Counted from the first letter of the stretch, positions 11,779 to 58,612 are shown. The stretch is DNA of 64,000 nucleotides from a virus (IMGVR_UViG_3300042691_038490:30860-94859), one strand, 5' to 3'. The notes: a model not told the origin generated them from the sequence alone. Made by a program: numbers and translations.

Positions 11779-12117
11779 GTAAATCAAAAAGACCTTTTAA
11801 TAAAAATAGCCCCCTGGAAATTTTGACCTTTAAGTATATTCCTTATTATTGATTTTTTATAGATTTCTAAAAAGGGGTAGGGATATACAGTATAAGCTAG
11901 ATAAGATAGATATTAAGCTGTTTATTGTATTATTTAAATAAGGGTTAACATAGAGATAAGTATAGATAAGATAAATAAGTAATATAAATAGTATAATATT
12001 TGATGGAGATTGAAGATAGTACCCCCTCGACGCTTTTGCGATCTCTGTTCGTCTAATTTTTTCAAAAATGGGGTGGTCATATGCAAAATAAAAGGGGATA
12101 GGGTAGCCCAAAAGTCA

Positions 12118-12142
12118 TAAGTCATTGACTATCAATGAAATT
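12118..12142. repeat. Single IHF-like palindromic box (half element) at region boundary
   Basis: TAAGTCATTGA-CTA-TCAATGAAATT. Confidence 0.75.
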
Positions 12143-12193
12143 TAAATGATAAAAATCTCTTGTGCAATCCCTAAAGTGTGATAGATTAAGAGT

Positions 12194-12367
12194 ATGAAAG
12201 TTAAAGCAAACATCAAGTTCGACCTAAACGAAACCATCAAACGACTTGAGGCTATCACGGCAGGATACAAAGCATCCGCCCAACGCCTCGACAACATCGT
12301 GGCAGAAGCCCAAGCTAAGAAGGATGAAGCCCATCAGAAGTATATGGGCGAACCCATCGTAAAATAA
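12194..12367 (+). CDS. Small hypothetical protein (paralog of 13921-14067)
   Basis: MKVKANIKFDLNETIKRLEAITAGY...; -10-like TAGATT just upstream. Confidence 0.75.
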   Translation: MKVKANIKFDLNETIKRLEAITAGYKASAQRLDNIVAEAQAKKDEAHQKYMGEPIVK

Positions 12368-12406
12368 TCATTGACGAAACAACAACCAGAAAGCATACTA
12401 GCTCAA

Positions 12407-12826
12407 ATGAAAAACCAAATCACCATCACTAAACAACCCTTCGGCAACACAACCGCTTTCCTCTTGGAAGGCAACAAAGGTCAGATCGAAAACTTCCATA
12501 ATGCGATGTATAACTACTCCGCAACTAATGGCGAGTTGCACGATATGGGCAACGGCAAAGCGTTCTACTTCTATGCACAGCCCGAGGCCGTGCTAGAAGC
12601 TATGACCAAGGTTGCTCTCTATGCCCTATGCAATAAGATCAAAGCAAAGGGCTTGAAGGGTGGACTACTCTCCCTTGCAAAGCAGAAAGCACAAAGCAAG
12701 TTCGATAGCATCAAAGAAGGACGCTTCCTTCGCACAGCAATCTCTACCGATGTGTTTAATGTGGGAACGATCAGTGCAGAGAAACCTAGCGACTACTGCG
12801 GTGCGATCAGTAGCGGGAGAGACTAA
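12407..12826 (+). CDS. Hypothetical early protein, family A copy 1
   Basis: ATG 7 nt after TTGACG-N17-CATACT; FHNAMYNYSATNGEL..GKAFYFYA. Confidence 0.8.
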   Translation: MKNQITITKQPFGNTTAFLLEGNKGQIENFHNAMYNYSATNGELHDMGNGKAFYFYAQPEAVLEAMTKVALYALCNKIKAKGLKGGLLSLAKQKAQSKFDSIKEGRFLRTAISTDVFNVGTISAEKPSDYCGAISSGRD

Positions 12827-13203
12827 TGACAGCAGAGATACTTGTTATAGCTTTAACACTCTTGGGTGAAGCTCGGGGCGAAGGCTTCGACGGAATGGCG
12901 GGTGTTGCATCAGTCATCCAGACGCGAGCCATTGAACGCAAGCAGACAGCTTCGCAGGTCTGTCTTGCACCAAAGCAGTTCAGCTTCTGGAATGGTGGAG
13001 TTACCGAAGCACAGAAGCAGAAGTTGCTCGCCAACCCTCAAGCACACAACGCTATTCGTCTTGCTAAACTTGTAGCAGAGAAGCGGATGCCTGATGTGGT
13101 GAATGGTGCGAACCACTACCACACCTTCCAAGTGTCGCCCAAGTGGTCAAAGGGTGAGCAAACAGTCGCAGTAATTAAAAATCACAAGTTCTACCGATTG
13201 TAG
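12826..13203 (+). CDS. Cell wall hydrolase, SleB/Hydrolase_2 family
   Basis: GEARGE..GMAGVASVI, QFSFWN, GANHYH, HKFY. Confidence 0.9.
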   Translation: MTAEILVIALTLLGEARGEGFDGMAGVASVIQTRAIERKQTASQVCLAPKQFSFWNGGVTEAQKQKLLANPQAHNAIRLAKLVAEKRMPDVVNGANHYHTFQVSPKWSKGEQTVAVIKNHKFYRL

Positions 13204-13383
13204 GACTTGACAATAAAGAAAGACATGATAAGATAAAACAATGAATAATACCAATGACAAGATCATCGAGTTGGCATCCAACTTGGTGAATATCATCAAA
13301 GACCTAAACAGCAAGCAATACAACCTCACCGCTGGAGTTTACCTCGCAGAGTTGAGCAACCTACTCGAAATGAGGAAGATCTA

Positions 13384-13764
13384 ATGATGGCACGCGCTAT
13401 CCTCATCGACCCATTCACCGAGACTGTCTCACAGGTAACTCTTGTGGACACGAAACTCGAAACTCTCCGCAATCTCATCGAGTGCGAGATCATCACGATG
13501 GCTGGCCTTGCTGATGGTGTGGACATGATCTTAGATGACGAAGGACTCTTGAAAGACTCAAAGTCTCAAGCCTACTTCAAGTTCGGGATCAGCTCTCAAC
13601 CTTTCGCTGGCAAAGCGTTGATCGTTGGCACAGACGAAGAAGGAAACACAGTTTCACTTCCTGAGAGTGTGACAACCGAAAAAGTTTTTGAGAGAGTGAT
13701 CTTTTTCAAACCCTCTGAAAAATATCTGGACGAATCAAAAGAAATTAGAGTTTTGCCCTTTTAA
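13384..13764 (+). CDS. DUF3846-like protein
   Basis: AILIDP..DDEGLL..FAGKALIVG.DEEG. Confidence 0.7.
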   Translation: MMARAILIDPFTETVSQVTLVDTKLETLRNLIECEIITMAGLADGVDMILDDEGLLKDSKSQAYFKFGISSQPFAGKALIVGTDEEGNTVSLPESVTTEKVFERVIFFKPSEKYLDESKEIRVLPF

Positions 13765-13777
13765 AAGTCTCCCTTCG

Positions 13778-13850
13778 TAAGTTGTTATCCATCAACGACT
13801 TACGCAAGGCGGGTCCCTTGCGTCGTAAGTCGTTATCAATCAACGAGAAA
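13778..13850. repeat. 73-bp paired-palindrome element, copy 1
   Basis: TAAGTTGTTAT-CCA-TCAACGACTTA + 23 bp + TAAGTCGTTAT-CAA-TCAACGAGAAA. Confidence 0.92.
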
Positions 13851-13920
13851 TAAATGAAGAAATTTCTTGCAAAAAATGAAAAATGTGATAGATTATAAGT
13901 AGAAAGAAAGAAGAAAAAAA

Positions 13921-14067
13921 ATGAAAACAAAAATCAAAATCAAATTCGACCTCAACGAAACAATTCGCCGCTTGGAAGAAATCTCCAAGGGCTATCAAGA
14001 ATCCGCAAAACGGATGGAAAAAATCATCGTCAAAATGGACGAAATCAAAACTCTTAAGAAAGGATAA
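13921..14067 (+). CDS. Small hypothetical protein (paralog of 12194-12367)
   Basis: MKTKIKIKFDLNETIRRLEEISKGY. Confidence 0.75.
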   Translation: MKTKIKIKFDLNETIRRLEEISKGYQESAKRMEKIIVKMDEIKTLKKG

Positions 14068-14074
14068 TAAAACA

Positions 14075-14275
14075 ATGATAACAATAAATCCAGAACTATA
14101 CGAAAACAAAAACATATTCCGATATGGTAACGAAAAGCTACTCGTGAAGGTGTTCCCTTCCACGATTGGATATAAAACAATGAGTGCAACCGCTGAAATC
14201 CTCGAAGGTGAGGACAAGGGTAAGTGGACAACCATTTATCTTCGCAAAGGTTTGTATCCCGTTGATGCTCAATAA
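14075..14275 (+). CDS. Hypothetical protein
   Basis: ORF track; co-oriented with neighbours. Confidence 0.6.
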   Translation: MITINPELYENKNIFRYGNEKLLVKVFPSTIGYKTMSATAEILEGEDKGKWTTIYLRKGLYPVDAQ

Positions 14276-14319
14276 GAAATAAAGTTTGACAAAATAGAAA
14301 AATCTGATAGGATAAAAAT

Positions 14320-14613
14320 ATGAAAGATAAGAACAAAGCAATCAAACCAGAAATCGGAACCTTCTACCTCTTGACCTACGACAAGACGAAGCATCCTTGG
14401 CTCCCTACCGAAGAAGTCCTCTTTGTGAAGGATAACGAAACCTTCATCAAAATCAGCATCAGCCAAGGTGCTGGTTTTAGCTCTCGTTGGGATTGGGCAA
14501 CCGAAAAAGCGGTGACCATTACCAAGCTCGCAAAAAATCAGCAGCTTGTGGACAAACTCAACCTCTCGGTAGAAATTGGCAGAGACATCGCCAAGGCCGA
14601 ACTTGGAAAATAA
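14320..14613 (+). CDS. Hypothetical protein
   Basis: TTGACA..TAGGAT promoter ends 6 nt before the ATG. Confidence 0.7.
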   Translation: MKDKNKAIKPEIGTFYLLTYDKTKHPWLPTEEVLFVKDNETFIKISISQGAGFSSRWDWATEKAVTITKLAKNQQLVDKLNLSVEIGRDIAKAELGK

Positions 14614-14749
14614 AATGAAAAAAATCCTTTTCAAAATAAATAAAAAAACTTACAGGCTCGCCGTGAAAAATGGTGAAGAAAAAAACTTTCTGCGAGAGAG
14701 ATTTTTCTACTATGTTTCTGCGAGTTGCTTGCATCTTCGAGACCTGCTC

Positions 14750-14822
14750 TAAGTAACTCAGCATCAACGAGTTACGCTCGCAGGGAGGCCGATCCCATAA
14801 ATGCTTAATAATCAATGCTTTA
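14750..14822. repeat. 73-bp element, copy 2
   Basis: TAAGTAACTCA-GCA-TCAACGAGTTA + 23 bp + TAAATGCTTAA-TAA-TCAATGCTTTA. Confidence 0.9.
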
Positions 14823-14909
14823 TAAATTCATGATCTTAGACTAAAACCTGATGAAATGCTTAAAATCAAAAACGATCTTTGAACAAAACCTAATGGAAGG
14901 CAAAAAATC

Positions 14910-14982
14910 TAAAGTCTTGAGTATCAAAGACTTACGCAACCAACTCCCCCGCGCGCGCAAACCCTTGACTATCAACAACTTG
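14910..14982. repeat. 73-bp element, copy 3
   Basis: TAAAGTCTTGA-GTA-TCAAAGACTTA + 23 bp + CAAACCCTTGA-CTA-TCAACAACTTG. Confidence 0.9.
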
Positions 14983-15022
14983 CAACGCTTGACAAAACAA
15001 AAATCTCTGATATCCTCTTTTT

Positions 15023-15385
15023 ATGCAAAACAAAATAAAAATATTTAGCGAACCCTTTGGCCCTAACCTCGCCTATTTGATAGAAGCTGATTTCCTATCT
15101 GCTGAAAGATTTTATAATGCAATTTACAATTTCGGTGGGACGAATTACAAATTGCAAGATCGTGGAAGTGGGAAAGCATTTTACTTTTATGCAGAGCCAG
15201 CGAAGTTTCGCAGAGCTTTAGCTCTCGCTCTCTCAAACAATCTTGAATCATCTTTTGGTGATGGCAACTGGGACTCTCACGGAGAAGCCCTAGCAGACCA
15301 AATCATTTCAGAAATAAAACCATCATCTTTTGTAAGGCGTTCAGTATCAACAGAATATTCTTGCAGAAAATCTTTGACAGAATAG
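15023..15385 (+). CDS. Hypothetical early protein, family A copy 2
   Basis: FYNAIYNFGGTNYKL..GKAFYFYA. Confidence 0.8.
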   Translation: MQNKIKIFSEPFGPNLAYLIEADFLSAERFYNAIYNFGGTNYKLQDRGSGKAFYFYAEPAKFRRALALALSNNLESSFGDGNWDSHGEALADQIISEIKPSSFVRRSVSTEYSCRKSLTE

Positions 15386-15576
15386 TAATCTGTGATACAT
15401 TAGTCGTATGAACAACAACGACATCTCATACCTCGCCTCGATTAACTGCACCGAAGCCTTTGCTGATGCGGAGGCTTTCTTCGACTACATCAATTCCCCT
15501 GATGTAATCAACGAAATGCTGGATAAGATGGCTCCCAGCTTCGATGAAGCTGATACCATCGTGGAGGTCAAATAAT

Positions 15577-15846
15577 ATGGACTACAAAGCCTCTCTCAAG
15601 GAGTGGATGAGCCAGCATATGCTGGGCGCTCAGGATGTGCGTGACATCCTCAATGAGATGCGTGAGGATGATCGCCTCGCTCTCTCTAAATCGTCAGATC
15701 TTTCTGATGTGGACGATTCGATGGATGGCGACTTTGATTCTGCTATGGCATCGGCTGGCCATGGCACAGACGAAGACTATGGTGGCGGGTGCTATCAGAT
15801 GGAAGACTTCGGCTGGGCTGGTGACGAAAACTTCTGTGGAGAATAA
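15577..15846 (+). CDS. Highly acidic hypothetical protein
   Basis: MDYKASL...DDSMDGDFDSAMASAGHGTDEDYG; internal ATG chosen after the upstream small ORF's stop. Confidence 0.6.
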   Translation: MDYKASLKEWMSQHMLGAQDVRDILNEMREDDRLALSKSSDLSDVDDSMDGDFDSAMASAGHGTDEDYGGGCYQMEDFGWAGDENFCGE

Positions 15847-15958
15847 TTATGATTGAAAAATATATACTCGCAATCGCTGGGCCTGGAATTTTTTTCCTTG
15901 CTCTCGCAACATTAGAAACTCTTATCAACTTTGCTGTCTGGTTTTGGGAGCAAAAACA

Positions 15959-16031
15959 TAAGTAGTTAACTATCAACGAGTTACGTCGGCGGGGCCTCGC
16001 CTTACGTAACTACTTGATAATCAAAGACTTC
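15959..16031. repeat. 73-bp element, copy 4
   Basis: TAAGTAGTTAA-CTA-TCAACGAGTTA + 23 bp + TAACTACTTGA-TAA-TCAAAGACTTC. Confidence 0.9.
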
Positions 16032-16249
16032 TAAAGCTTACATACTAGCTCGCCAACCTTCAAAATCTTCTTCCATCTCTCTTTGCCATTGAACAAAATT
16101 TTTGTTTGCATCTAGTGGAGGATTTTCAGTATCAGTCCACGGATAAAAAGTTTCTAAGTTTTCGTCTAGTAGTTTTTCAATGTTCATAAAAATAAAATTC
16201 CTAAAATAATTCCAAGTAAAATTAAGATAATTGTTTCCATTGGGACATC

Positions 16250-16885
16250 TTAATGCTTTTTGTAGTTAATTGCAAACTGATTTTTGTCCCAGCACGCACG
16301 ACAATCAGCACACTTGTTGCCTTGTTTAGAGCTAGGGCAATTAAAGTTTCCAACCTTGCTTGCACCGCTAACGCACAAACCAAGGCGTTGAGCGATACCA
16401 ACAGGAGCAGGGCCATCCATCATAAGAGCAGAGAGACGAATAGTTAAATTGGAAGGCACTTCTCCGCCTTTCTCAATATACTCTGAAACGAAAGCATACT
16501 CCCGAGTTGGCAACCAAAAGGAAATATGCGGAAGGTTTTTAGCAACCTGCACAATCTTTTGAAGATGCCATACGCCTTGGATGTCTCCCGAATCATGCCA
16601 TCTGAAATGGGGGTTTTTAACTTTGCCGATCAAATAGGACATAGCCTCAACCCAAAGATCATTGGTAAGAGAAGCAAAACGCTTTTCCATCGCCTCTTGA
16701 ACATTCTTAAAAACATAACGCCCTTTGAGAGCATAGCAGAACGCACAAATACTTCCTGCAACCTTACGCATTTTTTGCCCGATAAGACAACGCTTTGCTG
16801 GCGTTGAGTAGGCATAACCTGGCATCTTCGAAGGTTTAGATAGTGTGCCGACAATAGCTTCGGCTTGCTTTTTGTTTTTGAACAT
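16250..16885 (-). CDS. GP88-family protein (radical-SAM-like Cys motifs)
   Basis: LSKPSKMPG, C..G..ICAFCYA, FRWHDSGD, WLPTRE, CP..CADCRACW. Confidence 0.8.
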   Translation of the reverse strand: MFKNKKQAEAIVGTLSKPSKMPGYAYSTPAKRCLIGQKMRKVAGSICAFCYALKGRYVFKNVQEAMEKRFASLTNDLWVEAMSYLIGKVKNPHFRWHDSGDIQGVWHLQKIVQVAKNLPHISFWLPTREYAFVSEYIEKGGEVPSNLTIRLSALMMDGPAPVGIAQRLGLCVSGASKVGNFNCPSSKQGNKCADCRACWDKNQFAINYKKH

Positions 16886-16935
16886 AAAATAAATCTAACA
16901 TAATTTTTTCTTGTGACAAGTTTTTTTTACAGTTA

Positions 16936-17008
16936 AATCTCGTTGAATATCAATGACTTACAACCGCAGGGAGGTCGCCTCTGTAAGTCGTTAATGCTTA
17001 AGCAGTTG
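16936..17008. repeat. 73-bp element, copy 5 (overlaps ardC stop codon)
   Basis: AATCTCGTTGA-ATA-TCAATGACTTA + 23 bp + TAAGTCGTTAA-TGC-TTAAGCAGTTG. Confidence 0.88.
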
Positions 17009-17834
17009 CAGTTTCTGCTTCTGGAATCTCTTCGCTTTCTTTTTTACCAATGAAAGCGTCAAATCTTTTTTGAGCTTTACTAGAAGCTGAAATAATAAAA
17101 TTCATATCCTTTTTTAATACTTGGAGCCAACTAGAAAGATAACTCGCAGAATTGTTAAAACATTTTTCAGAATCAATTCCGCAGAAGTTAAGACAGAGAC
17201 TAGCAAAAATCTCTGCGGTCAATTCTTCTTTGCTATAATTCTGTGAACCAAATCCGTTCTTCACTTCATCATTAGTCGCCTTGTGCATAGCGTGACCAAT
17301 CTCGTGAAACGCAGTGGAGTAATACTCCTCAACGCTGTTGAAGTTTTCTTTTGGAGGAAGGTCGATCTTATGTTCCTGCGGATAATAACAGGCACGACTT
17401 CCGCCGTGCTTAATCTTAATAATGCACTTGTTAATCAACTTCTCTGCTTCTTCTACTGGAGAAAAATCGAGTTTCTTAACTTCGGGTTGTTTCCACTTGA
17501 TGTTCTCGACATCACTTAACCCAAAAACTTTGTAATATCTCATCATAGGAAACCCAGTGCTTTCGTCATCTTTGTTTTTTAGGAGCTTGTAATAAACTAC
17601 CAGATGAGCTTTGGCACCTTTCTTGATGTTTCCGCCAAGTTCTTTGATCTGGTTAAAGGTAAAGAAAAAGTCATCAGAGGAAACCATACGAAGCAAAAAT
17701 TGGTTTATGCCCCTATAATTCTTTTTTGAAATGCCGTTGCAAAGATCAAAAACTTTCCAAGGCTTCTGCCAAGGGCAAGTTCCATTGTTGAGGGCTTCGA
17801 TGAATTTTTCAGTGATAATTTCGTTTACTTTCAT
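16998..17834 (-). CDS. ardC: ArdC-family antirestriction protein (ssDNA-binding plus zincin domain)
   Basis: PWQKPW, YRGIN, TFNQ, FHEIGH, YSKEELTAE, SASYLSSW. Confidence 0.9.
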   Translation of the reverse strand: MKVNEIITEKFIEALNNGTCPWQKPWKVFDLCNGISKKNYRGINQFLLRMVSSDDFFFTFNQIKELGGNIKKGAKAHLVVYYKLLKNKDDESTGFPMMRYYKVFGLSDVENIKWKQPEVKKLDFSPVEEAEKLINKCIIKIKHGGSRACYYPQEHKIDLPPKENFNSVEEYYSTAFHEIGHAMHKATNDEVKNGFGSQNYSKEELTAEIFASLCLNFCGIDSEKCFNNSASYLSSWLQVLKKDMNFIISASSKAQKRFDAFIGKKESEEIPEAETATA

Positions 17835-17874
17835 AGCTTAAATATATCACTTTTTTTCTTTTTGTCTACAAATA

Positions 17875-17947
17875 AATCTCATTCACCATCAACAACTTAC
17901 AACTGCAGGGAGGTTGCCTTTGTAACTCTCTAATAATCAATAGAATA
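17875..17947. repeat. 73-bp element, copy 6
   Basis: AATCTCATTCA-CCA-TCAACAACTTA + 23 bp + TAACTCTCTAA-TAA-TCAATAGAATA. Confidence 0.85.
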
Positions 17948-18145
17948 AAAATGTTGACATAAAACAAAAATATGATAATCTATAAAAAGAAAAGAGGTAA
18001 TAAAATGATGCACGATATATTTGATGACGAAATAACCTTGAAAATCTGGGCTAAAAAAATGCTCGATGATCAAGCTATGGAAAGAGCATTAGAGACTCAA
18101 GCAGAACTCGATGCTGACCATATGCGTGATATGGGCGAGAGTTAA

Positions 18146-18218
18146 TAACTCGCTCATTATCAATAACTTATAACCGCAGGGAGGTCGCTTGCGTAAACCT
18201 TTGATAATCAAGTGCTTA
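18146..18218. repeat. 73-bp element, copy 7 (abuts tRNA-Glu 3' end)
   Basis: TAACTCGCTCA-TTA-TCAATAACTTA + 23 bp + TAAACCTTTGA-TAA-TCAAGTGCTTA. Confidence 0.9.
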
Positions 18219-18288
18219 GGGCTAAACGGATTCGAACCGATACACCCTCATTGAAAGCGAGGAGTCCTAACCATTAGACGATAGCCCC
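18217..18288 (-). tRNA. trnE: tRNA-Glu(TTC)
   Basis: Cloverleaf GGGGCTA...TAGCCCT; anticodon loop CTTTCAA; GTTCGAATC. Confidence 0.9.
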
Positions 18289-18380
18289 AAAATATAGTAT
18301 TTAACTTATTATATTAGGTATTTTTGTATTTATCAATTAGTATTTGCTATTTAGTGTAATCTCTTTTAGAATTGTATTAG

Positions 18381-18584
18381 ATGAAAAGCAAAACTGAGAT
18401 GGATCAAGTATTCAAAAACTCAAAGTTATATCAAGAATTCCTCAAAGAGCGTGAGGAAATATTAAAACACAAATGGCTTGAAAGCGAGAAAGCTGGTAAG
18501 GATGTAGGATTCGAATGGGCACTTCTTGATTGGAACTTTCATCACCGCACAGGTTGGAAAAGCGAACACAGTAATTTCTTCTAA
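18381..18584 (+). CDS. DUF4032-like small protein
   Basis: LYQEFLKEREEILKHKWLESEKAGKDVGFEWALLDW. Confidence 0.75.
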   Translation: MKSKTEMDQVFKNSKLYQEFLKEREEILKHKWLESEKAGKDVGFEWALLDWNFHHRTGWKSEHSNFF

Positions 18585-18593
18585 AAAATTTTA

Positions 18594-18721
18594 GCTCTTC
18601 CGCTCTCTCTATTCTAGAACTAGAGAAAATATAATACCCACCTTTACCTGCCTCAGACTCTGGGCATTGGGGCTTCAAGGGCTCTTAATGGGAGAGTCAC
18701 TCCACACCTTGCGGAAAGAAC
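18594..18721 (-). ncRNA. Candidate ~128-nt structured small RNA
   Basis: TTGCAC-N16-TAAGAT promoter points into it; 5' GTTCTTTCCGC pairs with 3' GCGGAAGAGC; internal GACTCT/AGAGTC stem. Confidence 0.45.
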
Positions 18722-18757
18722 TATAGTTATCTTACCATACTTTTGTTTTAGTGCAAT

Positions 18758-18786
18758 AAAAAAGGCGAGATTTTTTAGGTCTCGCC
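18758..18786 (-). terminator. Intrinsic terminator
   Basis: GGCGAGA/TCTCGCC stem followed by T6 on the minus strand. Confidence 0.75.
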
Positions 18787-18811
18787 CTTTCTATAAATAA
18801 TCTCTCTGTTT

Positions 18812-19072
18812 TTAGACTGGCGAGAGACCTCCAGCAATCCGATCATAACGGAACTGACGATGTCCGAATCCGTCACGACCAGAGAAGCACCAAGAGATGA
18901 AAAGCTTTTTTCCAGCCTTGGAAATATAATGAGTGGTAGGAACGCCAACGATGTAAGTATAAGTCTCGGTTCCATTGTAAGGCTTATAGTTGATGATATA
19001 CCGCTGTCCTAGCACGAACCAGAACAGACCCTTAATCATCTCCCACAGGGTGATGTTGTTTTGTTTCTTCAT
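18812..19072 (-). CDS. Small WYL/SH3-like protein
   Basis: INYKPYNG...SWC..RDG..RQFRYDRI. Confidence 0.5.
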   Translation of the reverse strand: MKKQNNITLWEMIKGLFWFVLGQRYIINYKPYNGTETYTYIVGVPTTHYISKAGKKLFISWCFSGRDGFGHRQFRYDRIAGGLSPV

Positions 19073-19112
19073 TTAATAATCATACCATAACTTCATTTTT
19101 CTGCAAGAAAAG

Positions 19113-19185
19113 AATCTCGTTGATAGTCAATGACTTACGCGGCGAAAGTCCCCGCCGCTGTAACTACTTAATACTCAACAACTTA
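19113..19185. repeat. 73-bp element, copy 8
   Basis: AATCTCGTTGA-TAG-TCAATGACTTA + 23 bp + TAACTACTTAA-TAC-TCAACAACTTA. Confidence 0.9.
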
Positions 19186-19585
19186 TAAAAATTAAATTAT
19201 TCTTCTGATTCTTTCCAATTAGGATGCGCTTTAGCCCATTTAACAAAAACAACTTCGAGCTCTGCTAAGTACTTATCTATTTGAGATATGAGTTTAGGAT
19301 CTTCATCCTTGAGGATTCTTTTTTCTAGTATTTTACTGATCCTATTTTCACTTTTCATATATAGTATTTTACAGTGCAGTGAGAAATAATTCAATTATTA
19401 TTTTTGGGATAAGTGATTTTAGGAAAAAATTATTTTAAATGTGTAATTATAATTTTCGCTAACTCGATTATTGCTCCCCACGAAATACTTCCCACCATCA
19501 TTAAAATAAAAATCCAAATAAAATTCTTTTCGTACCATCTCACATAAAATGTTTACATAAGAAAAAATCTTTTGGGAAAAATTCT

Positions 19586-19659
19586 CGCTTTCAGCAGGGA
19601 TCGAACCTGCAACCTACGGATTAGAAATCCGTTGCTCTATCCAATTGAGCTATGAAAGC
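19586..19659 (-). tRNA. trnR: tRNA-Arg(TCT)
   Basis: GCTTTCA acceptor; ACGGA-TTTCTAA-TCCGT. Confidence 0.92.
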
Positions 19660-19665
19660 GATATG

Positions 19666-19738
19666 TCGCCTAGGTCGGACTCGAACCGACACTCGAACGA
19701 TTTTAAGTCGTTTGTCTCTGCCATTGGACTACTAGGCG
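19666..19738 (-). tRNA. trnL: tRNA-Leu(TAA), short variable loop
   Basis: AACGA-CTTAAAA-TCGTT; 5-nt variable loop. Confidence 0.88.
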
Positions 19739-19744
19739 GATCTT

Positions 19745-20140
19745 TTAGCTGTCAGTATCTAACTTTTCAGCCGAAACTTGTCCGAGAGAATAAGTAGGCT
19801 CAATCTGTGCTGTGCGAACAAAATTCTCAACAGGAATCTTGCTGATAGTATTCTTAACTCGATTCATAACAACCTGCTTCATTCCACCTTTTAGTCCAGT
19901 AAACTTTTTACCAAACTTATCTGTCATACCATTCATAACATACTTAAACATCACACGCTCTAACTTCTCAAGGGTAATCCAGAAATAAGCAAAGTCATCT
20001 GCCATCCATTGAAGTTCACCATTAGTGCCGCCCCAATTATAGACGCGATTATGAAATTGCTCGATGCGGTCTTTAGAACCTTTAATTCCAATAACCCAAT
20101 TTGCTCCGAGGTTTTGTTTGAATAATTTGATTTGTCTCAT
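19745..20140 (-). CDS. Hypothetical early protein, family A copy 3
   Basis: IEQFHNRVYNWGGTNGEL. Confidence 0.8.
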   Translation of the reverse strand: MRQIKLFKQNLGANWVIGIKGSKDRIEQFHNRVYNWGGTNGELQWMADDFAYFWITLEKLERVMFKYVMNGMTDKFGKKFTGLKGGMKQVVMNRVKNTISKIPVENFVRTAQIEPTYSLGQVSAEKLDTDS

Positions 20141-20196
20141 AGTTTTTTTAGTTTAACAGGGTTTGATTTTTTGTCAAGGGTTTTGTTGAAATTTTT

Positions 20197-20268
20197 TGGA
20201 CCGCGTAGGACTCGAACCTACAACCAATTGGTTAAAAGCCAACTGCTCTACCATTGAGCTAGCAGTCC
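20197..20268 (-). tRNA. trnK: tRNA-Lys(TTT)
   Basis: GTTGG-CTTTTAA-CCAAT. Confidence 0.92.
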
Positions 20269-20276
20269 GAAAATCT

Positions 20277-20349
20277 TGGGCATACTAGGATTCGAACCTA
20301 GGACCAAGGCATTATGAGTGCCCTGCTCTAACCGCTGAGCTATACGCCC
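20277..20349 (-). tRNA. tRNA-CAT, probably Ile2 (lysidine type)
   Basis: GGGCA-CTCATAA-TGCCT; body resembles ileX-type tRNAs. Confidence 0.8.
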
Positions 20350-20646
20350 AATACTTTAACCAGAGCAAATCTCCGTAGGAAATTCGCTAGGTTCGGGAAC
20401 TAGCTTAAAGGCAACATTAAAAGCCTTGCTGATCCTATAAAGATCCTGCAAGGAATAAGTGTTCTGCCTTGCTGCTTCTCTGATTCTGCTGTCCATAATA
20501 TAAGCCCTACGCTCACCAAAGATAACTCTGGTGTAGTAAGGTGTCCATTGAGGTGTTTTGTTTGTCATAGGTTTAATATACAATAGTTTGATAAATAGTC
20601 AATAAAAATAATTGGTTAAACATCAAGAGTTTACATATAATAAGAT

Positions 20647-20740
20647 TGGTACGAGGGGCAGGATTCGAACCTGCATTTTGCCCAAATCTAGAGCGACCAC
20701 ATTATAAGTGTGGGGTCTTAACCAGTTAGACGACCCTCGC
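20647..20740 (-). tRNA. trnI: tRNA-Ile(TAT) with long variable arm and encoded CCA
   Basis: CCACA-CTTATAA-TGTGG; ~22-nt variable region; ends ACCA. Confidence 0.85.
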
Positions 20741-20939
20741 ATCAGCTCCGTAGCTAGTATCGGCCTCCGCTTTTAGGCTTTTCTATCCGAGCCAATCTTT
20801 TTAATCACGACCTTCGTGCCGTCTGGCCATGCACGGATAACCTTTTTCCAAAAGTCAGCCTCTGCTTCAGCTTCTTTTAGATCGGTGTGCATATCCTCGC
20901 TAACACGAATCCCATCACGCAAAACGATATATCTTACAT

Positions 20940-21170
20940 TCATTCTTCTACCTCCGCAACGATTTCGTTGTCAAATAATGAGCCACCATCAACCTTGTCG
21001 CAAATAACGATGTCATTACTGCCATCATCACCAGCATACACGGCACGAAGTTTCCTTACTTGACTATATTCTTTTTTAGTCCATTGACTCTCTGGAACGC
21101 CAAGGACTTGCAGAGCCTCGACTCTCTCTGGAGGGATCGCCTCACCACTTACTGCACAATGATAGGTCAT
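20940..21170 (-). CDS. TraR/DksA-like protein (degenerate zinc finger)
   Basis: YHCAVSGEAIPPERVEAL. Confidence 0.6.
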   Translation of the reverse strand: MTYHCAVSGEAIPPERVEALQVLGVPESQWTKKEYSQVRKLRAVYAGDDGSNDIVICDKVDGGSLFDNEIVAEVEE

Positions 21171-21201
21171 AGTTGTGATTGTAATATGTTTTTATATTCT
21201 G

Positions 21202-21561
21202 TCAAGCAATTTTGCGGGGACGGCCTCGACCACGCTTTTCACCACTAGGCAGAATAGATGTTGCATTGTAGTTTGTTAGTTTCTCCTGCAAATAATCAAA
21301 ACGCTTGTTAGCATCCTCGATTGAATTGCAAGTGAAAGCCCAATCACCCCATTGACTATCGCTAGGATACATTTCTGCTGGGGGCATCTTTACCCCTGCG
21401 ATCTCATATCCATTGTGCTTTTTGATAGCAATAACTTCATAATGATAGTTTTCACTTTCGGGGTCATCTAATTGCTTTTTGTAAATAGCGATGTCACCAT
21501 CACGCTTTACCTGCTGAAGTTTGAATCCCTTGCTAGTAAAAGATTCTTCAAGAATTTTCAA
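21202..21561 (-). CDS. Hypothetical protein with C-terminal AT-hook
   Basis: EMYPSDSQWG; KRGRGRPRK. Confidence 0.65.
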   Translation of the reverse strand: MKILEESFTSKGFKLQQVKRDGDIAIYKKQLDDPESENYHYEVIAIKKHNGYEIAGVKMPPAEMYPSDSQWGDWAFTCNSIEDANKRFDYLQEKLTNYNATSILPSGEKRGRGRPRKIA

Positions 21562-21728
21562 TCTTCACTCCTTCTGGAAGCCAGCCTTTAGGGTCAAGGT
21601 TTTCACCCATATAGCCGACTTGAGTTTCTTGTTTAGTTTTAGGGTCAATAGAAAAGAGAGCATAGCCACCTTCAGCCAGCTTCTTTACTTTAGTGATGTT
21701 CATATGATAATTATAGTATGCTTTTAGA

Positions 21729-22070
21729 TTAATTCAAGACAAAAATATCACGACCAATAACACCTGCCCACTTTGCTTTATATACAGGCTTTTTAGTATC
21801 AGAATAAACAAAGCTCTTATACTTATAAGGATTGTAAGTCACCTTGCGTTCTAGTTGATCAATAGGCCATCCTTCATCCCTATGCCCACAAACAAATGCG
21901 TGAACATTCTTACGCTTCTCTCTAAGAACCCTGGAGCGACCTGCTTGACTCACTCGAAATTCTACATCTTTCAAAAAGAACTCTGAACTATGCTCTAATA
22001 CTTTTCCTTTGAGCATAATGCTTAAACAATGTTTATGTAAATTGTAATAGACTTTGTGTTTTGCTTTCAC
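21729..22070 (-). CDS. Conserved phage hypothetical protein
   Basis: VYYNLHK..FRVSQAGR.RVLREKRKNVHAF..YNPY. Confidence 0.75.
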   Translation of the reverse strand: MKAKHKVYYNLHKHCLSIMLKGKVLEHSSEFFLKDVEFRVSQAGRSRVLREKRKNVHAFVCGHRDEGWPIDQLERKVTYNPYKYKSFVYSDTKKPVYKAKWAGVIGRDIFVLN

Positions 22071-22111
22071 TCCCTTAACTATAAGATAAATTCTAAAAAT
22101 GTCAAGAGATA

Positions 22112-22184
22112 TAAGTGCTTGATAATCAAAGAGTTACGCAAGCCGAGCCCCCGCATGCGTAAATCCTTGGTAGTCAATGACTTA
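22112..22184. repeat. 73-bp element, copy 9
   Basis: TAAGTGCTTGA-TAA-TCAAAGAGTTA + 23 bp + TAAATCCTTGG-TAG-TCAATGACTTA. Confidence 0.92.
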
Positions 22185-22203
22185 TAATCCATCAAATCTA
22201 AGC

Positions 22204-22233
22204 AAAAAAATGCGAGGGGGTTTGCCCCTCGCA
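22204..22233 (-). terminator. Intrinsic terminator of the DUF932 gene
   Basis: TGCGAGGGG/CCCCTCGCA stem then T7 on the minus strand. Confidence 0.85.
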
Positions 22234-22255
22234 CTTGTTAAGGTTTCGTTTTAGT

Positions 22256-23113
22256 TTAGGCGACCAGTTTCAAGAGGTCTTCGTCACGAGTTTTGCCCGA
22301 GAAGACTTTGAGTAGGTCACGGTTGACTCGCTCGCTGTACTCGTAGCGCTCTTGCGAGACATTGCGAGTAAGGAATTGCGTTGCCGCATTGTAGAGGTTG
22401 TACAGATTGCGATCCGTATCCTCCTCGTACTGCGGATTGCGCCAAACAGCCTCGATCCCTTCGCGCACCTTGCCAGAGATAACGTCTTTCTCTTCCAGCT
22501 TGGTGAGCAGGTTCAAGCCCTGTTCGTCAGTGAGCGCCCGTTGCGCCAGTTTGTTGAAAACTTGCGCTTGAGACTCAACGCTATCACACGCACGAGCCAA
22601 CGCATCACCAACAAAGTCCAGATTGACCGCAAGCGTGTGGCGCTTAGTCATGCTGAACTCCTTGGAGAGCGAGGTCATGCCGTTGGTGCAAACGAGACGC
22701 AGGAAGCCTAGGGACAACGAAACACGGCAGGAGCGGTCATAACTATTGTTAACGACCAGTCGCAAGCCGAGAATGTCACCCTTGGCGCGCTTGCCCATGG
22801 GCTTCAACTCCGTTTTGAAATCGGGGAAGTCATAGGAAGCGTAGAAGCGAGAACCGTCACGCACAACAAACTTCTTCGAATTGTAATTCGAGAGCTTGCC
22901 ATGAGTGGCGAGGTTGCTTTCCACCATCTCGATGAGGTCTGCATTCTTCACCACACCATACTGCTCGGTGCAAACTCCGAGCGTAATGGGTTCGGCGGTG
23001 TCACGGCGCACCATGCCGAAGTATCCTGTCCTCTTGCCGTCAGTTGTGAGGAGTGGCTCTTGATGTACATCAAAATCGTATACATCTTGAGCGGGTTTGG
23101 TTGTTCTAGCCAT
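22256..23113 (-). CDS. DUF932-family protein
   Basis: NNSYDRS, RLVCTNGM, RH, NLYNLYNAATQ. Confidence 0.85.
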   Translation of the reverse strand: MARTTKPAQDVYDFDVHQEPLLTTDGKRTGYFGMVRRDTAEPITLGVCTEQYGVVKNADLIEMVESNLATHGKLSNYNSKKFVVRDGSRFYASYDFPDFKTELKPMGKRAKGDILGLRLVVNNSYDRSCRVSLSLGFLRLVCTNGMTSLSKEFSMTKRHTLAVNLDFVGDALARACDSVESQAQVFNKLAQRALTDEQGLNLLTKLEEKDVISGKVREGIEAVWRNPQYEEDTDRNLYNLYNAATQFLTRNVSQERYEYSERVNRDLLKVFSGKTRDEDLLKLVA

Positions 23114-23212
23114 AGATTAATAGTACCACACTTTTATAATCTGACAAGATTTTTTTTCATGTCAGAAGATAATGGCCTTAAAGGTTTTACGTAATGTGAA
23201 TAACTTTTTTTA

Positions 23213-23285
23213 AAAGGTGTTGAATATCAACGACTTACGCGCGCGGGGGGCGCGCCCCTATAACTCCTTAATAATAAGCAACTTA
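23213..23285. repeat. 73-bp element, copy 10
   Basis: AAAGGTGTTGA-ATA-TCAACGACTTA + 23 bp + TAACTCCTTAA-TAA-TAAGCAACTTA. Confidence 0.88.
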
Positions 23286-23286
23286 C

Positions 23287-23742
23287 TTAAACCACACTAA
23301 ATTTAATATTATTCTTTCTGTACTCTCTTACTTTCCTCATAGCATATAAAGAGGCATCTACTTCACTTAATTTAGCTCTAGTTCCCATGTTATATTTTCT
23401 TATTTTCTTAACTCCATGATAAAATTTCCTTTTCTTGTATTGCCAAATATGTCTTACTTCATGGGCAATTAATTCAATTAATGATTCTTCCCAGCTATAA
23501 GTTTTAACAGGTAAATATCCCCTCATACCACCGCTAATATATGGCTTAATATACTTTGAATAAGCTGGAACAGCAATATGCGCCCTCATGCTTCCACTCC
23601 AAGCCCTACCATGCCAACCTAATTTAGTATTACCAAAATCTATTTTTCGGATATCTTTAAGGTGCAACCCTTGGGGCAAGCACCATTTAACCATCTCTTT
23701 TAATTTATCTGAACATAATTTAGTAGTGTTGATGAGCTTCAT
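23287..23742 (-). CDS. Putative zinc metallopeptidase
   Basis: LIAHEVRHIWQ...EVDA. Confidence 0.7.
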   Translation of the reverse strand: MKLINTTKLCSDKLKEMVKWCLPQGLHLKDIRKIDFGNTKLGWHGRAWSGSMRAHIAVPAYSKYIKPYISGGMRGYLPVKTYSWEESLIELIAHEVRHIWQYKKRKFYHGVKKIRKYNMGTRAKLSEVDASLYAMRKVREYRKNNIKFSVV

Positions 23743-23957
23743 ACTCTCAACTATAATCTAAATTAATCTAAAGTCAATTAATATCTGGCGGTAATTACAG
23801 GATGTCCTTCGTCTAAAACATCACAGGATTCATCAGTAAATAATAAAGTGGCTCTACGATATTCGTTATCAGTATCTATAATAGTAATATCACTATTTAA
23901 TTGGCTCTCATTCATATTCTTAAGTTTATTTAAGAGGTCTCTATAAGTATTTGTCAT

Positions 23958-25790
23958 TTAATTAAATATCCTATATTGTTTAGCGGCCTTAATTAATTTT
24001 TTTCTAATACTCTCATTATTAACATTAACTGTTCCGCCCCATTCTATTTTCTTTATTTCTCTGCCACATATTTCATTATTTCCATCAAAGGATTCAACAA
24101 CATAGTATTTATTATCACCTATTTGGAAATCATAGGATATTTTAACATTTCTAGATATTAAATTAACATCAGCTTTAGAAGATGCGGGATGTGTTAGGCT
24201 CATATATTTACTATATATTAAATTCTTATTTAGTCAATTTATTTTTCTTCTTTTTCTTATCAGACTTAAGCCACTCTTTAGACCATTGAATAAAGATCTT
24301 ATAGTTATTCTTTTTACCTTTTTGATGTCCAAAGCGAAAGCTCATATTATTTCCAGTCTAAAACAAAATGATTTTTAAGATTTTCCGCTAGTTCTTTTGC
24401 TTTTTGTTCATTTTCTGCTTCTACTTGAAGATATGCAGAACACATTTTTTCTACTTTAACAAAATACATCTTTTTATGTAAGAACCTTTCAATCTCATCT
24501 GATGGTGCAATTCCGCTAAAATTCATTTTGCTTCTTGTATATTATTTACTTTGTTTTCTATTTGCTCTAGCAGAGCAGGATCTAGAATTGTAAAGCCTTC
24601 CTGTGTTTGCAGGTAAGCATCAATAATAGTATAGTCCTCATCAATGTGTTCTTTATATACTATATTATCATTATATCCTTCTGCTTCAATAACATAAGTA
24701 TCTACTGTTATTGTCTGGGACTTTTTGCTAATTATTTTAATATCACTCATAATTAAAGTTTAACCCAAGTTGCGCCAATTCCTTTGAGGAAACTCCTTAC
24801 GCTCTTGTAAGTTGTCCAATAGCTAGACTCATCACAAGGAGGATTGATTCTACGAGCTTTCCAAACCTTCTTGCGGTGATAGGATTTAATCCTGTCGCCA
24901 AAGAGGTATGGGTTGTAATTCGTGACTGCCATAACTTCATAATGTGGGTTCATTCTATGAATATACCCTAGATTAATTTATTGTCAATAGTGATTCAAAT
25001 AAATATAAATAGCCGCAAAAGCTATAATAAGAAAAGATAATATTGTATCGCCAGTAATCATTTCTTTGTTTCTCCAAAATAGATATAATGATATTTACCA
25101 GTATAATCTTTATGTATAGAGTATAGTCTACCTTGTCTGACTTCGTGCTGGGGACAGCATCTAGTATGAATATCCTCTGCTCTTGCAAGTGGAGCAATAA
25201 CCCCATACATCACAAGCATAAGAGCCCAAAACAATAAGAACTTAACTATCATTTCGCTCATATAATTTGTATATTAGACTATCATAGCAAATAATATCTT
25301 TGAATCTTAGAATCTCTAGACTAAAGCTCACGCCTCGTCCTCATCATCAGATTCAATATTAATAATATCAAAGTGATAATCAACTTCATCGAAGTTAGCA
25401 TCGCAATCTTCTGCTCGCTCTAGTGCAAGCTCCTCTGCTTCTGCTAGAGTCTCTGCCTCGACTTCGATCTCAGCTTCGGCGATTTGATTTCTTTGAATTG
25501 TGATTGTGTATTTTTTTAAGGTGTCGCTCATAATCTAAATATACTGGAAATTCTTTTGATGTCAAGTCCTTGTGATCTGTTCCAGGATAACGACTTACCA
25601 ATTCTGCTTTAAAAAAGTCTGCTTCGAATCCTGTCACATCTTTGATAGCTTGAGCGCCTCTGCAATTTAGATTACCAAAACCTATATCAGCTTTGTATTT
25701 ACTTAAGTCTACTATAATACTATTTGGCAAAGTGCCATTAATAATGCCGTTGGGTTGTTTGTATTTGATATCGTATAATCTGTATTTCAT
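23958..25790 (-). CDS. Cluster of small hypothetical ORFs (e.g. 23958-24203, 24523-24750, 24753-24953, 25058-25261, 25328-25531, 25470-25790)
   Basis: Short co-oriented ORFs, several with their own TTGAC..TATA promoters; 25328-25531 has EVEAET.AEA (DpnD/PcfM-like). Confidence 0.55.
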
Positions 25791-58518: not shown

Positions 58519-58522
58519 AAAT

Positions 58523-58610
58523 CGGAACGAGTAGGATTCGAACCTACGGATGATATTAAACCATCGGCGGTTTAGTAAACCGCTGCTTTAGACCGCTCAG
58601 CCATCGTTCC
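58523..58610 (-). tRNA. trnS: tRNA-Ser(ACT)
   Basis: GGAACGA acceptor, long variable arm, G73; GCGGT-TTACTAA-ACCGC. Confidence 0.88.
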
Positions 58611-58612
58611 AT

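Follow-up and report, generated by a model that had tools for sequence, protein, structure and literature searches.

Paired IHF-like boxes punctuate transcription units in an accessory-gene island of uncultured large phages

The 64,000-nt stretch of DNA considered here (the window) comprises bases 30860-94859 of a single 94,859-bp IMG/VR virus record, IMGVR_UViG_3300042691_038490 (G000), for which CheckV gives a completeness of 58%. The source phage, of about 165 kb, is uncultured and is not T4-like, its terminase being at most 28% identical to that of any cultured or known phage. One 11-kb island of higher guanine-plus-cytosine (GC) content in the window carries genes for ArdC-like, DUF932, GP88, L5 gp82-like and DUF3846 proteins and a cell-wall hydrolase, seven tRNA genes, and many small promoter-driven genes and open reading frames (ORFs). 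The same island holds ten 73-bp elements, each consisting of two 25-bp palindromic boxes on either side of a 23-bp spacer, which a first-pass annotation had described as paired sites resembling those of the DNA-bending integration host factor (IHF). The coordinates of these features are collected in Table 1.

The box pattern TAAN4TTGAN3TCAAN4TTA, scanned over the whole window with up to two mismatches allowed, gave 22 matches against 2.4 +/- 1.6 in 100 shuffles, none of which reached 22. Eighteen of the matches lie between 12118 and 23237, all called on the + strand. Outside the island the window contains only four unpaired matches, which is the level expected by chance, and the paired pattern has no match in the remaining 31 kb of the contig. 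The ten annotated elements are real, with a pattern far above that of the shuffles, and their box starts are 48 bp apart in 10/10 cases, giving the 25-23-25 arrangement that had been described as invariant; five of the 20 boxes (13826, 16984, 17875, 17923 and 23261) are degenerate and require a looser pattern or three to four mismatches. The two lone boxes reported at 12118 and 20609 are equally genuine. The accompanying remark that no other box was noticed in the window holds beyond the island, but two lone boxes within it had been missed, at 15333 and, in degenerate form, at 14255. The spacer was correctly described as variable and GC-rich (67% GC), but it is more constrained than this implies. 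A G-run is followed by a C-run at a fixed offset (in this order in 88 copies and in the reverse order in two). GGGAGG occurs at offset 8 only and its complement at offset 9 only, and GGG(N)CCC is centred.

Elements 14750 and 14910 form a double element, separated by a gap of 87 bp (14823-14909) in which the sole ORF of at least 40 amino acids is one that runs across element 14910. The insert contains promoter-like hexamers facing each other, and similar double elements (about 159 bp from start to start) are found in the loci L001, L059, L058, L045 and L003. An emptied cassette is one possible identity for the insert, a small RNA gene another.

Table 1. Boxes, paired elements and associated features of the island (window coordinates)
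Feature	Position	Strand	Context
Accessory-gene island	12100..23300		GC 0.37-0.44 vs about 0.30 in the rest; holds every element
Lone box	12118..12142		-35 (12160) of first + strand gene 17 nt downstream; divergence point of the island
Paired element	13778..13850		After stop of gene 13384-13764; promoter -35 at 13867, 16 nt past box 2
Degenerate lone box, 3 mismatches	14255..14279		Within end of gene 14075-14275; -35 (14286) 6 nt downstream; a box is kept at the equivalent position in relatives
Paired element	14750..14822		First TAA is the stop codon of a small ORF ending at 14752
Paired element	14910..14982		Promoter TTGACA at 14989, 6 nt past box 2, drives leaderless gene 15023-15385
Lone box	15333..15357		Within end of gene 15023-15385; -35 (15374) 16 nt downstream; kept in relatives
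Paired element	15959..16031		Where + and - strand blocks converge; no promoter adjoining
Paired element	16936..17008		Box 2 overlaps ArdC stop; - strand promoter TTGTCA (16919), 16 nt from box 1, drives GP88-like gene
ArdC-like anti-restriction gene	16998..17834	-	30% identity to R388 ArdC over full length, E 9e-37
Paired element	17875..17947		Flanked by divergent promoters, ArdC (17868, -) and 17954 (+), each 6 nt off
Paired element	18146..18218		Stop of gene 17972-18145 on one side, tRNA-Glu 3' end (18216-18289, -) on the other
Paired element	19113..19185		Promoter TTGCAG (19106, -), 6 nt from box 1, drives gene 18812-19072
Lone box	20609..20633		6 nt upstream of -35 TTGACT (20602, -) of leaderless gene 20356-20583
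Paired element	22112..22184		Promoter TTGACA (22105, -), 6 nt from box 1; DUF932 terminator past box 2
Canonical intrinsic terminator	22208..22236	-	12-bp stem plus T-run, between DUF932 and element 22112
Paired element	23213..23285		Between stop of gene 23287-23742 and DUF932 gene; DUF932 promoter elsewhere

The boxes stand in a strict register with sigma70-type promoters, a feature absent from the first-pass annotation. Strong promoters were modelled as TTGnnn followed, after 16-17 nt, by an extended -10 of the form TGnTAnnnT. Around 387 element sides, 70 such promoters lie within 60 nt, and 52 of these start at 6 nt (21 promoters), 7 nt (five) or 16 nt (26) from the box edge, the 16-nt class having a conserved A/T-rich filler. 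The box centres accordingly fall near -54 or -64 relative to the promoters, in two classes one helical turn apart. In the window, a box lies 6 or 16-17 nt from 12 of the 18 strong promoters, among them the promoters of all four lone boxes. Most island genes (12160-24240; for example at 12186-12196, 16886-16892 and 20584-20602) have their own extended -10 sigma70-type promoter. Since the ATG usually follows the -10 by 6-7 nt, with no Shine-Dalgarno sequence in the window or in relatives, the island mRNAs would be leaderless. A likeness to T7-type promoters (ACGACT...GGGAG), noted by eye, was rejected on account of a 2-3 nt discrepancy in spacing and of the G/C-rich bases before GGG.

The elements also mark the ends of genes. 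In 21 cases the outer TAA of a box doubles as the stop codon of the upstream gene, and elements 15959 and 18146, which have no promoter, lie between convergent gene ends. In the L097 clade (42% GC) a gene is followed by a canonical terminator, then by the element and, after about 90 nt, by the promoter. Because a canonical terminator precedes the L097 elements and also adjoins element 22112 in the window, the element is not the terminator; it is a boundary module, neither a terminator nor always part of a promoter. L097:400-8500, from the clade that also includes L007, L065 and L096, contains seven near-perfect elements. Each is preceded by one and the same terminator, which on the gene strand reads GCCCACCC..GGGTGGGC and then a T-run, and between each element and the next promoter lies a conserved segment of about 70 nt carrying TATAACAA and TTGTCAA motifs. 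The repeated unit of this clade is thus much longer than 73 bp. A candidate promoter pointing into the elements of this clade was judged weak because of its poor -10.

A scan of IMG/VR for the paired geometry yielded at least 114 loci, from which all element counts given here are taken. At least 79 of them have one or more pairs with no more than three mismatches per box, and at least 239 paired elements, 196 of them distinct, occur among the loci listed; the distinct copies come from more than 70 uncultured viral contigs. The primary sequence of the element is conserved among phages with few detectable genes in common. Of the close pairs among the matches listed, 231 have box starts 48 bp apart, 19 have them 47 bp apart and five 51 bp apart, and the 23-bp spacer is therefore not universal. 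The proposal of one conserved protein-DNA geometry is weakened by the 51-bp class. All five 51-bp pairs belong to L042 (IMGVR_UViG_3300007735_000750), a close relative whose proteins are mostly 90-100% identical to those of the window. Five of the six L042 elements (2546, 3659, 8660, 9599 and 10581) have a spacer of 26 bp instead of 23 bp, a lineage-wide shift in geometry. An apparent 58-bp class proved spurious, consisting of a lone box and a chance match within a promoter.

Apart from one phage scrap, the element was found neither in cultured phages nor in cell genomes. BLAST of the island and of one clean element against 50,697 phage records returned tRNA matches only, and word searches of the literature for the box sequence found nothing relevant. 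A survey of one genome from each of 185,579 prokaryote species gave 64 stretches, of which only one looks genuine, a 1-kb scrap of a metagenome-assembled genome identical to phage copies. A box-like site, GCGTTGAAAATCAACGAGTTA followed by CGCG, is present in the Hymenobacter swuensis plasmid pHsw3 (L191:780-925), directly after four 19-bp direct repeats resembling replication iterons.

In relatives, too, the elements are confined to one region: in G001 (172 kb, 100% complete) and G002 (86% complete) every match falls in one GC-richer island of about 10 kb, and a reversed control pattern gave zero matches in both. The first-pass annotation had further proposed that the elements act physically, either as an injection ratchet or anchor on first-entering DNA or as a roadblock to translocating defence enzymes. 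The elements do cluster with genes of early and anti-restriction type in a single island, and bent IHF complexes could in principle stall translocases. In G001, however, the island occupies an internal position at 124-136 kb of the 172-kb sequence, terminal repeats were not detected in that genome, and the strict promoter register points instead to transcription. The injection role is therefore unsupported, and physical roles of this kind are considered highly improbable.

The palindromy of the boxes raises the question of whether they are recognised as duplex DNA or fold as single strands. Across the 196 distinct copies, complementarity at every symmetric pair equals the expectation from column composition, in box 1, in box 2 and over the whole 73 bp, and no covariation was detected within boxes, across the element or within the spacer. 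In the absence of base-pair covariation, the palindromy is a sequence preference of symmetric protein sites and not the product of selection for pairing or hairpins. Of the two arms of a box, the inner one, adjacent to the spacer, is the more strongly conserved. In the L097 clade both arms are near perfect and form 12-1-12 palindromes. That the elements act as RNA, as hairpin clusters that terminate or stabilize early transcripts or are processed in them (for example by RNase III), is the least probable of the explanations weighed here. In its favour are the position of the elements at gene ends, copies that fold well (z down to -5.9) and a slight bias of the spacer towards a hairpin (-6.4 versus -4.75 kcal/mol). 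Apart from the missing covariation, RNAalifold found no consensus structure or pairs, single-sequence folds were inconsistent, and an Rfam search at a permissive threshold matched tRNAs but no element. No U-tract follows the spacer, canonical terminators adjoin elements in the window and throughout the L097 clade, and conservation of primary sequence among phages that share so few genes likewise speaks against a role as RNA.

The protein suggested by the sequence is IHF. Columns 13-25 of the box read W-ATCAA-NNNN-TTA, and the opposite strand reads alike from column 13 to column 1, so that the box is the IHF consensus WATCAANNNNTTR mirrored about a shared central W. Information content is highest, at 1.2-2.0 bits, in precisely the ATCAA and TTA columns. 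Within the box the steps TT and AA are separated by 9 bp, compatible with the kink geometry of IHF, the exact step of which we take to be that of the 1IHF structure. The two kinks that IHF introduces into DNA are 9 bp apart and enclose WATCAR (10.1101/382655).

A second line of evidence comes from conjugative plasmids. BLAST of a clean element against plasmids matched the Bordetella plasmid BPP5P1 and led on to IncW plasmids, including R388. The origin of transfer (oriT) of R388 contains the only box of that plasmid, GAAGTCATTGTAAATCAATGACTTA, which is identical to the phage box at about 22 of 25 positions and is followed directly by CG and the hairpin GCGCACCGAAAGGTGCG (inverted repeat 2, IR2; box and hairpin at 16123-16165) and then by the nic region. 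A weight matrix built from phage half-elements and scanned over the 34 kb of R388 scored this box at 22 bits, against 3.6 for the next best site, and scored the oriT box of BPP5P1 at 36 bits, the median of genuine phage copies. In R388 only the IR2-proximal arm has the full consensus, matching the conservation of the inner arm in the phages. In R388 oriT, TrwC binds IR2 and nic, IHF binds IR3 and TrwA binds IR4 (PMC4814116). Since the inverted repeats of R388 run in the order IR2, box, and TGTAGTG/CACTACA towards trwA, the box should be the IHF-bound IR3. An IHF site (IHFa) also lies beside the relaxase repeat in the oriT of F and R1. In all phage copies a TTA-CG-GC core brings the IHF-type repeat directly against a G/C-rich stretch, as in R388. 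The IHF reading of the first-pass annotation is thus strengthened by the mirrored consensus and by the oriT likeness, while binding, like the effects on transcription and topology discussed below, is proposed from sequence.

Taken together, the boxes of R388, R7K and BPP5P1 are nearly the same as those of the phages, with the IHF-consensus arm facing CG and a G/C-rich hairpin, and ArdC is common to the phage island and the plasmid leading region. The plasmids differ in having one box per replicon, followed by the relaxase site and nic, whereas the window has ten mirror-duplicated copies with variable spacers. In the phages a second box stands where R388 has TATTGTCT/ATAG, that is, in the place of the relaxase arm and nic of a MOBF oriT, and a six-frame search of G000, G001 and G002 found no relaxase of the TrwC family. 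One might still suppose that the elements derive from oriT cores of MOBF conjugative plasmids, each an IHF site with a relaxase-type hairpin, which were acquired along with leading-region genes of the ArdC type, domesticated and duplicated in mirror image. During infection, the G/C hairpin at the centre would then be extruded by two IHF U-turns, and could be where an unrecognised cassette-exchanging enzyme enters or nicks the DNA, or could act as a decoy for relaxosome components of resident plasmids. We regard this as a long shot.

The reading we favour, and to which we give about an even chance, is that an IHF-family protein of the host binds each box, and that the paired module serves as an architectural boundary and promoter element. 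The protein would be host-encoded because the complete relative G001 lacks an HU/IHF gene (PF00216), as do G000 and G002 in the same six-frame search. Each 25-bp box would be a symmetrised site for this DNA-bending protein, with WATCAANNNNTTR on both strands and, through the shared central W, two kink positions 9 bp apart, so that one dimer per box could produce one sharp bend. In a paired element the two bends, 48 bp from one to the other, would then enclose a stiff G/C-rich core that has a weak GGG(N)CCC dyad at its centre, and the whole would make up a compact nucleoprotein knot lying between transcription units. Where a promoter lies 6-7 or 16 nt from a box, the bend may wrap upstream DNA onto RNA polymerase and so tune the early transcription of leaderless cassettes. 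The knot might also act as a topological and transcriptional boundary between dense, strongly transcribed and often convergent units. In simulations, IHF is reported to be able to pin plectonemes and to partition DNA into topological domains (PMC9519438). Given that the box is nearly identical to the putative IHF site of R388, the modules probably fold DNA at the boundaries of gene units.

Several observations weigh against this reading. About one-third of the strong island promoters have no box, and the promoter register is clade-specific, since some 90 nt separate box and sense promoter in the L097 clade. In the five L042 elements with 26-bp spacers the helical phase is shifted by about 100 degrees, which argues against one fixed protein-DNA geometry. 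An extra conserved A/T pair, at box columns 5 and 21, falls outside the IHF consensus. Natural IHF sites are asymmetric, and the near-perfect arms of the L097 clade would also fit any symmetric dimer. The first plasmid BLAST matches were borderline (E 0.01 and 0.1), and the assignment of the R388 box to IR3 depends on the order of the repeats.

Much of this would be accommodated by a serious rival, which we nevertheless consider unlikely, namely that a dedicated regulator of phage or host origin, a symmetric dimer other than IHF, uses the boxes as operators to switch the early cassettes on or off together. Such a regulator, modelled on P1 C1, the stoperators of cluster A mycobacteriophages or the Aca repressors of anti-defence operons, would bind paired boxes as two cooperating dimers. 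The clean palindromes of the L097 clade, the lack of covariation, the fixed register of box and promoter, the sufficiency of single boxes and the extra conserved position outside the IHF consensus are all consistent with it, and the L042 spacers resemble co-evolution with a lineage-specific partner. Against it, a six-frame search of G000, the sole genome searched for both, found no HTH_3 or ParB protein. No repressor-type family stands among the 25 listed of 41 (102 window ORFs) and of 58 (134 small ORFs of G001), and no HU/IHF gene was found in G000, G001 or G002. Box centres at -54 and -64, upstream of the -35, would be unusual for a repressor, and a dedicated regulator leaves unexplained both the conservation of the inner arm and the likeness to the IHF-bound oriT repeat.

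Comparison of gene order with relatives shows differences of entire cassettes that have elements at their borders. In L001, ArdC and gene 17972 are missing, and the two flanking alignments overlap inside the single element of that locus. L042 lacks gene 17972, and its junction connects the end of box 1 in element 17875 with the spacer of element 18146. In L003 gene 17972 is in another position, and in L044 the gene order is rearranged. Between the window and L042 the elements are local minima of identity, at 34-80% versus 90-100% in genes. These element-bounded gains, losses and moves agree with the earlier suggestion of recombination sites that shuffle cassettes, and one could add the empty pair 14750/14910. 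The further step, that the elements are selected sites bounding mobile cassettes moved by a site-specific enzyme, as integron attC sites are, appears improbable. Neither serine (PF00239) nor tyrosine (PF00589) recombinases were found in six-frame searches of G000, G001 and G002, which likewise lack the TrwC-type relaxase. The spacers, which differ between copies, leave the elements without a shared crossover core, hybrid elements are more complex than a left part joined to a right part, and the lone boxes sit at promoters inside cassettes. With no recombinase gene found, cassette shuffling looks like a by-product of repeated homology. Under the favoured IHF reading the modules, being repeated, would be hot spots of homologous exchange.

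Several known systems invite comparison. RIP- and RIB-type bacterial interspersed mosaic elements (BIMEs) of Escherichia coli are chromosomal repetitive extragenic palindromes with an IHF site. Like them, the phage elements are extragenic repeats that combine an IHF-type site with G/C-rich imperfect palindromes at the ends of transcription units, and similar topological and boundary roles have been proposed. In BIMEs the GC palindromes flank a central IHF site, whereas the order is reversed in the phage elements, which are moreover found only in phages, have a rigid geometry and stand in promoter register. At lambda pL and Mu Pe, IHF stimulates early promoters from single asymmetric sites, and helical phase matters. 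The phage boxes share with these an IHF-type site upstream of a strong early sigma70 promoter, but are symmetric, often paired, placed at other distances and associated with 12 of the 18 strong promoters of one island. The promoter-early stem-loop (PeSL) cassettes of T4-type phages consist of a promoter and an RNA stem-loop recognised by RNA polymerase (PMC2839356, PMC4122927). Both PeSLs and the present elements are repeated modules between small early or accessory genes, with host sigma70-type promoters and with insertions, deletions or swaps of cassettes at the modules. The elements differ in conserving paired protein-site palindromes without covariation and in having promoters adjoining only some copies, and they occur in a phage that is not T4-like.

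Some further features of the phage and its relatives may be mentioned. The genes 12371-12826, 15023-15385 and 19745-20140 are paralogs, three copies in the window of an uncharacterised family of 120-150 amino acids that is the most widespread protein family of element-bearing loci (31 of the 79 among the loci listed). Its AlphaFold model (mean predicted local distance difference test 77) has a predicted beta-beta-alpha-beta-alpha-alpha order, and comparison with the PDB by sequence and by fold gave no significant match. A second paralogous pair, 12194-12367 and 13921-14067, encodes proteins of 48-57 amino acids with the motif MK.K.KIKFDLNETI.RLE, each being the first gene downstream of a box promoter of the 16-17-nt class. 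Their resemblance to ribbon-helix-helix proteins was seen by eye only, with no Pfam match, and was not retained; 13921, the one paralog compared, has no similarity to TrwA. ARAGORN predicts an unusually long tRNA-Ile(TAT) of 94 nt at 20647-20740 and a tRNA-Ser(ACT) of 90 nt at 58522-58611. The codons read by the nine phage tRNAs all end in A or U, suggesting a host with a GC content above that of the phage. The small ORFs of the complete relative G001 include two sigma70 region-2 (sigma70_r2) proteins, two HNH_3 endonucleases, endonuclease VII (EndoVII), DUF736, ThyX and PhoH.

If a host IHF does bind these boxes, a clade of abundant uncultured large phages would organise its anti-defence and early island with a repeated architectural unit, one that sets promoter geometry and the boundaries of transcription units and drives modular gene exchange as a side effect. 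Such a unit would be a phage counterpart of BIME/RIP elements and of the PeSLs of T4, built from a component of plasmid oriT. It would bear on the existence of symmetric IHF sites, on IHF as a domain boundary and on the flow of leading-region genes from plasmids into phages.

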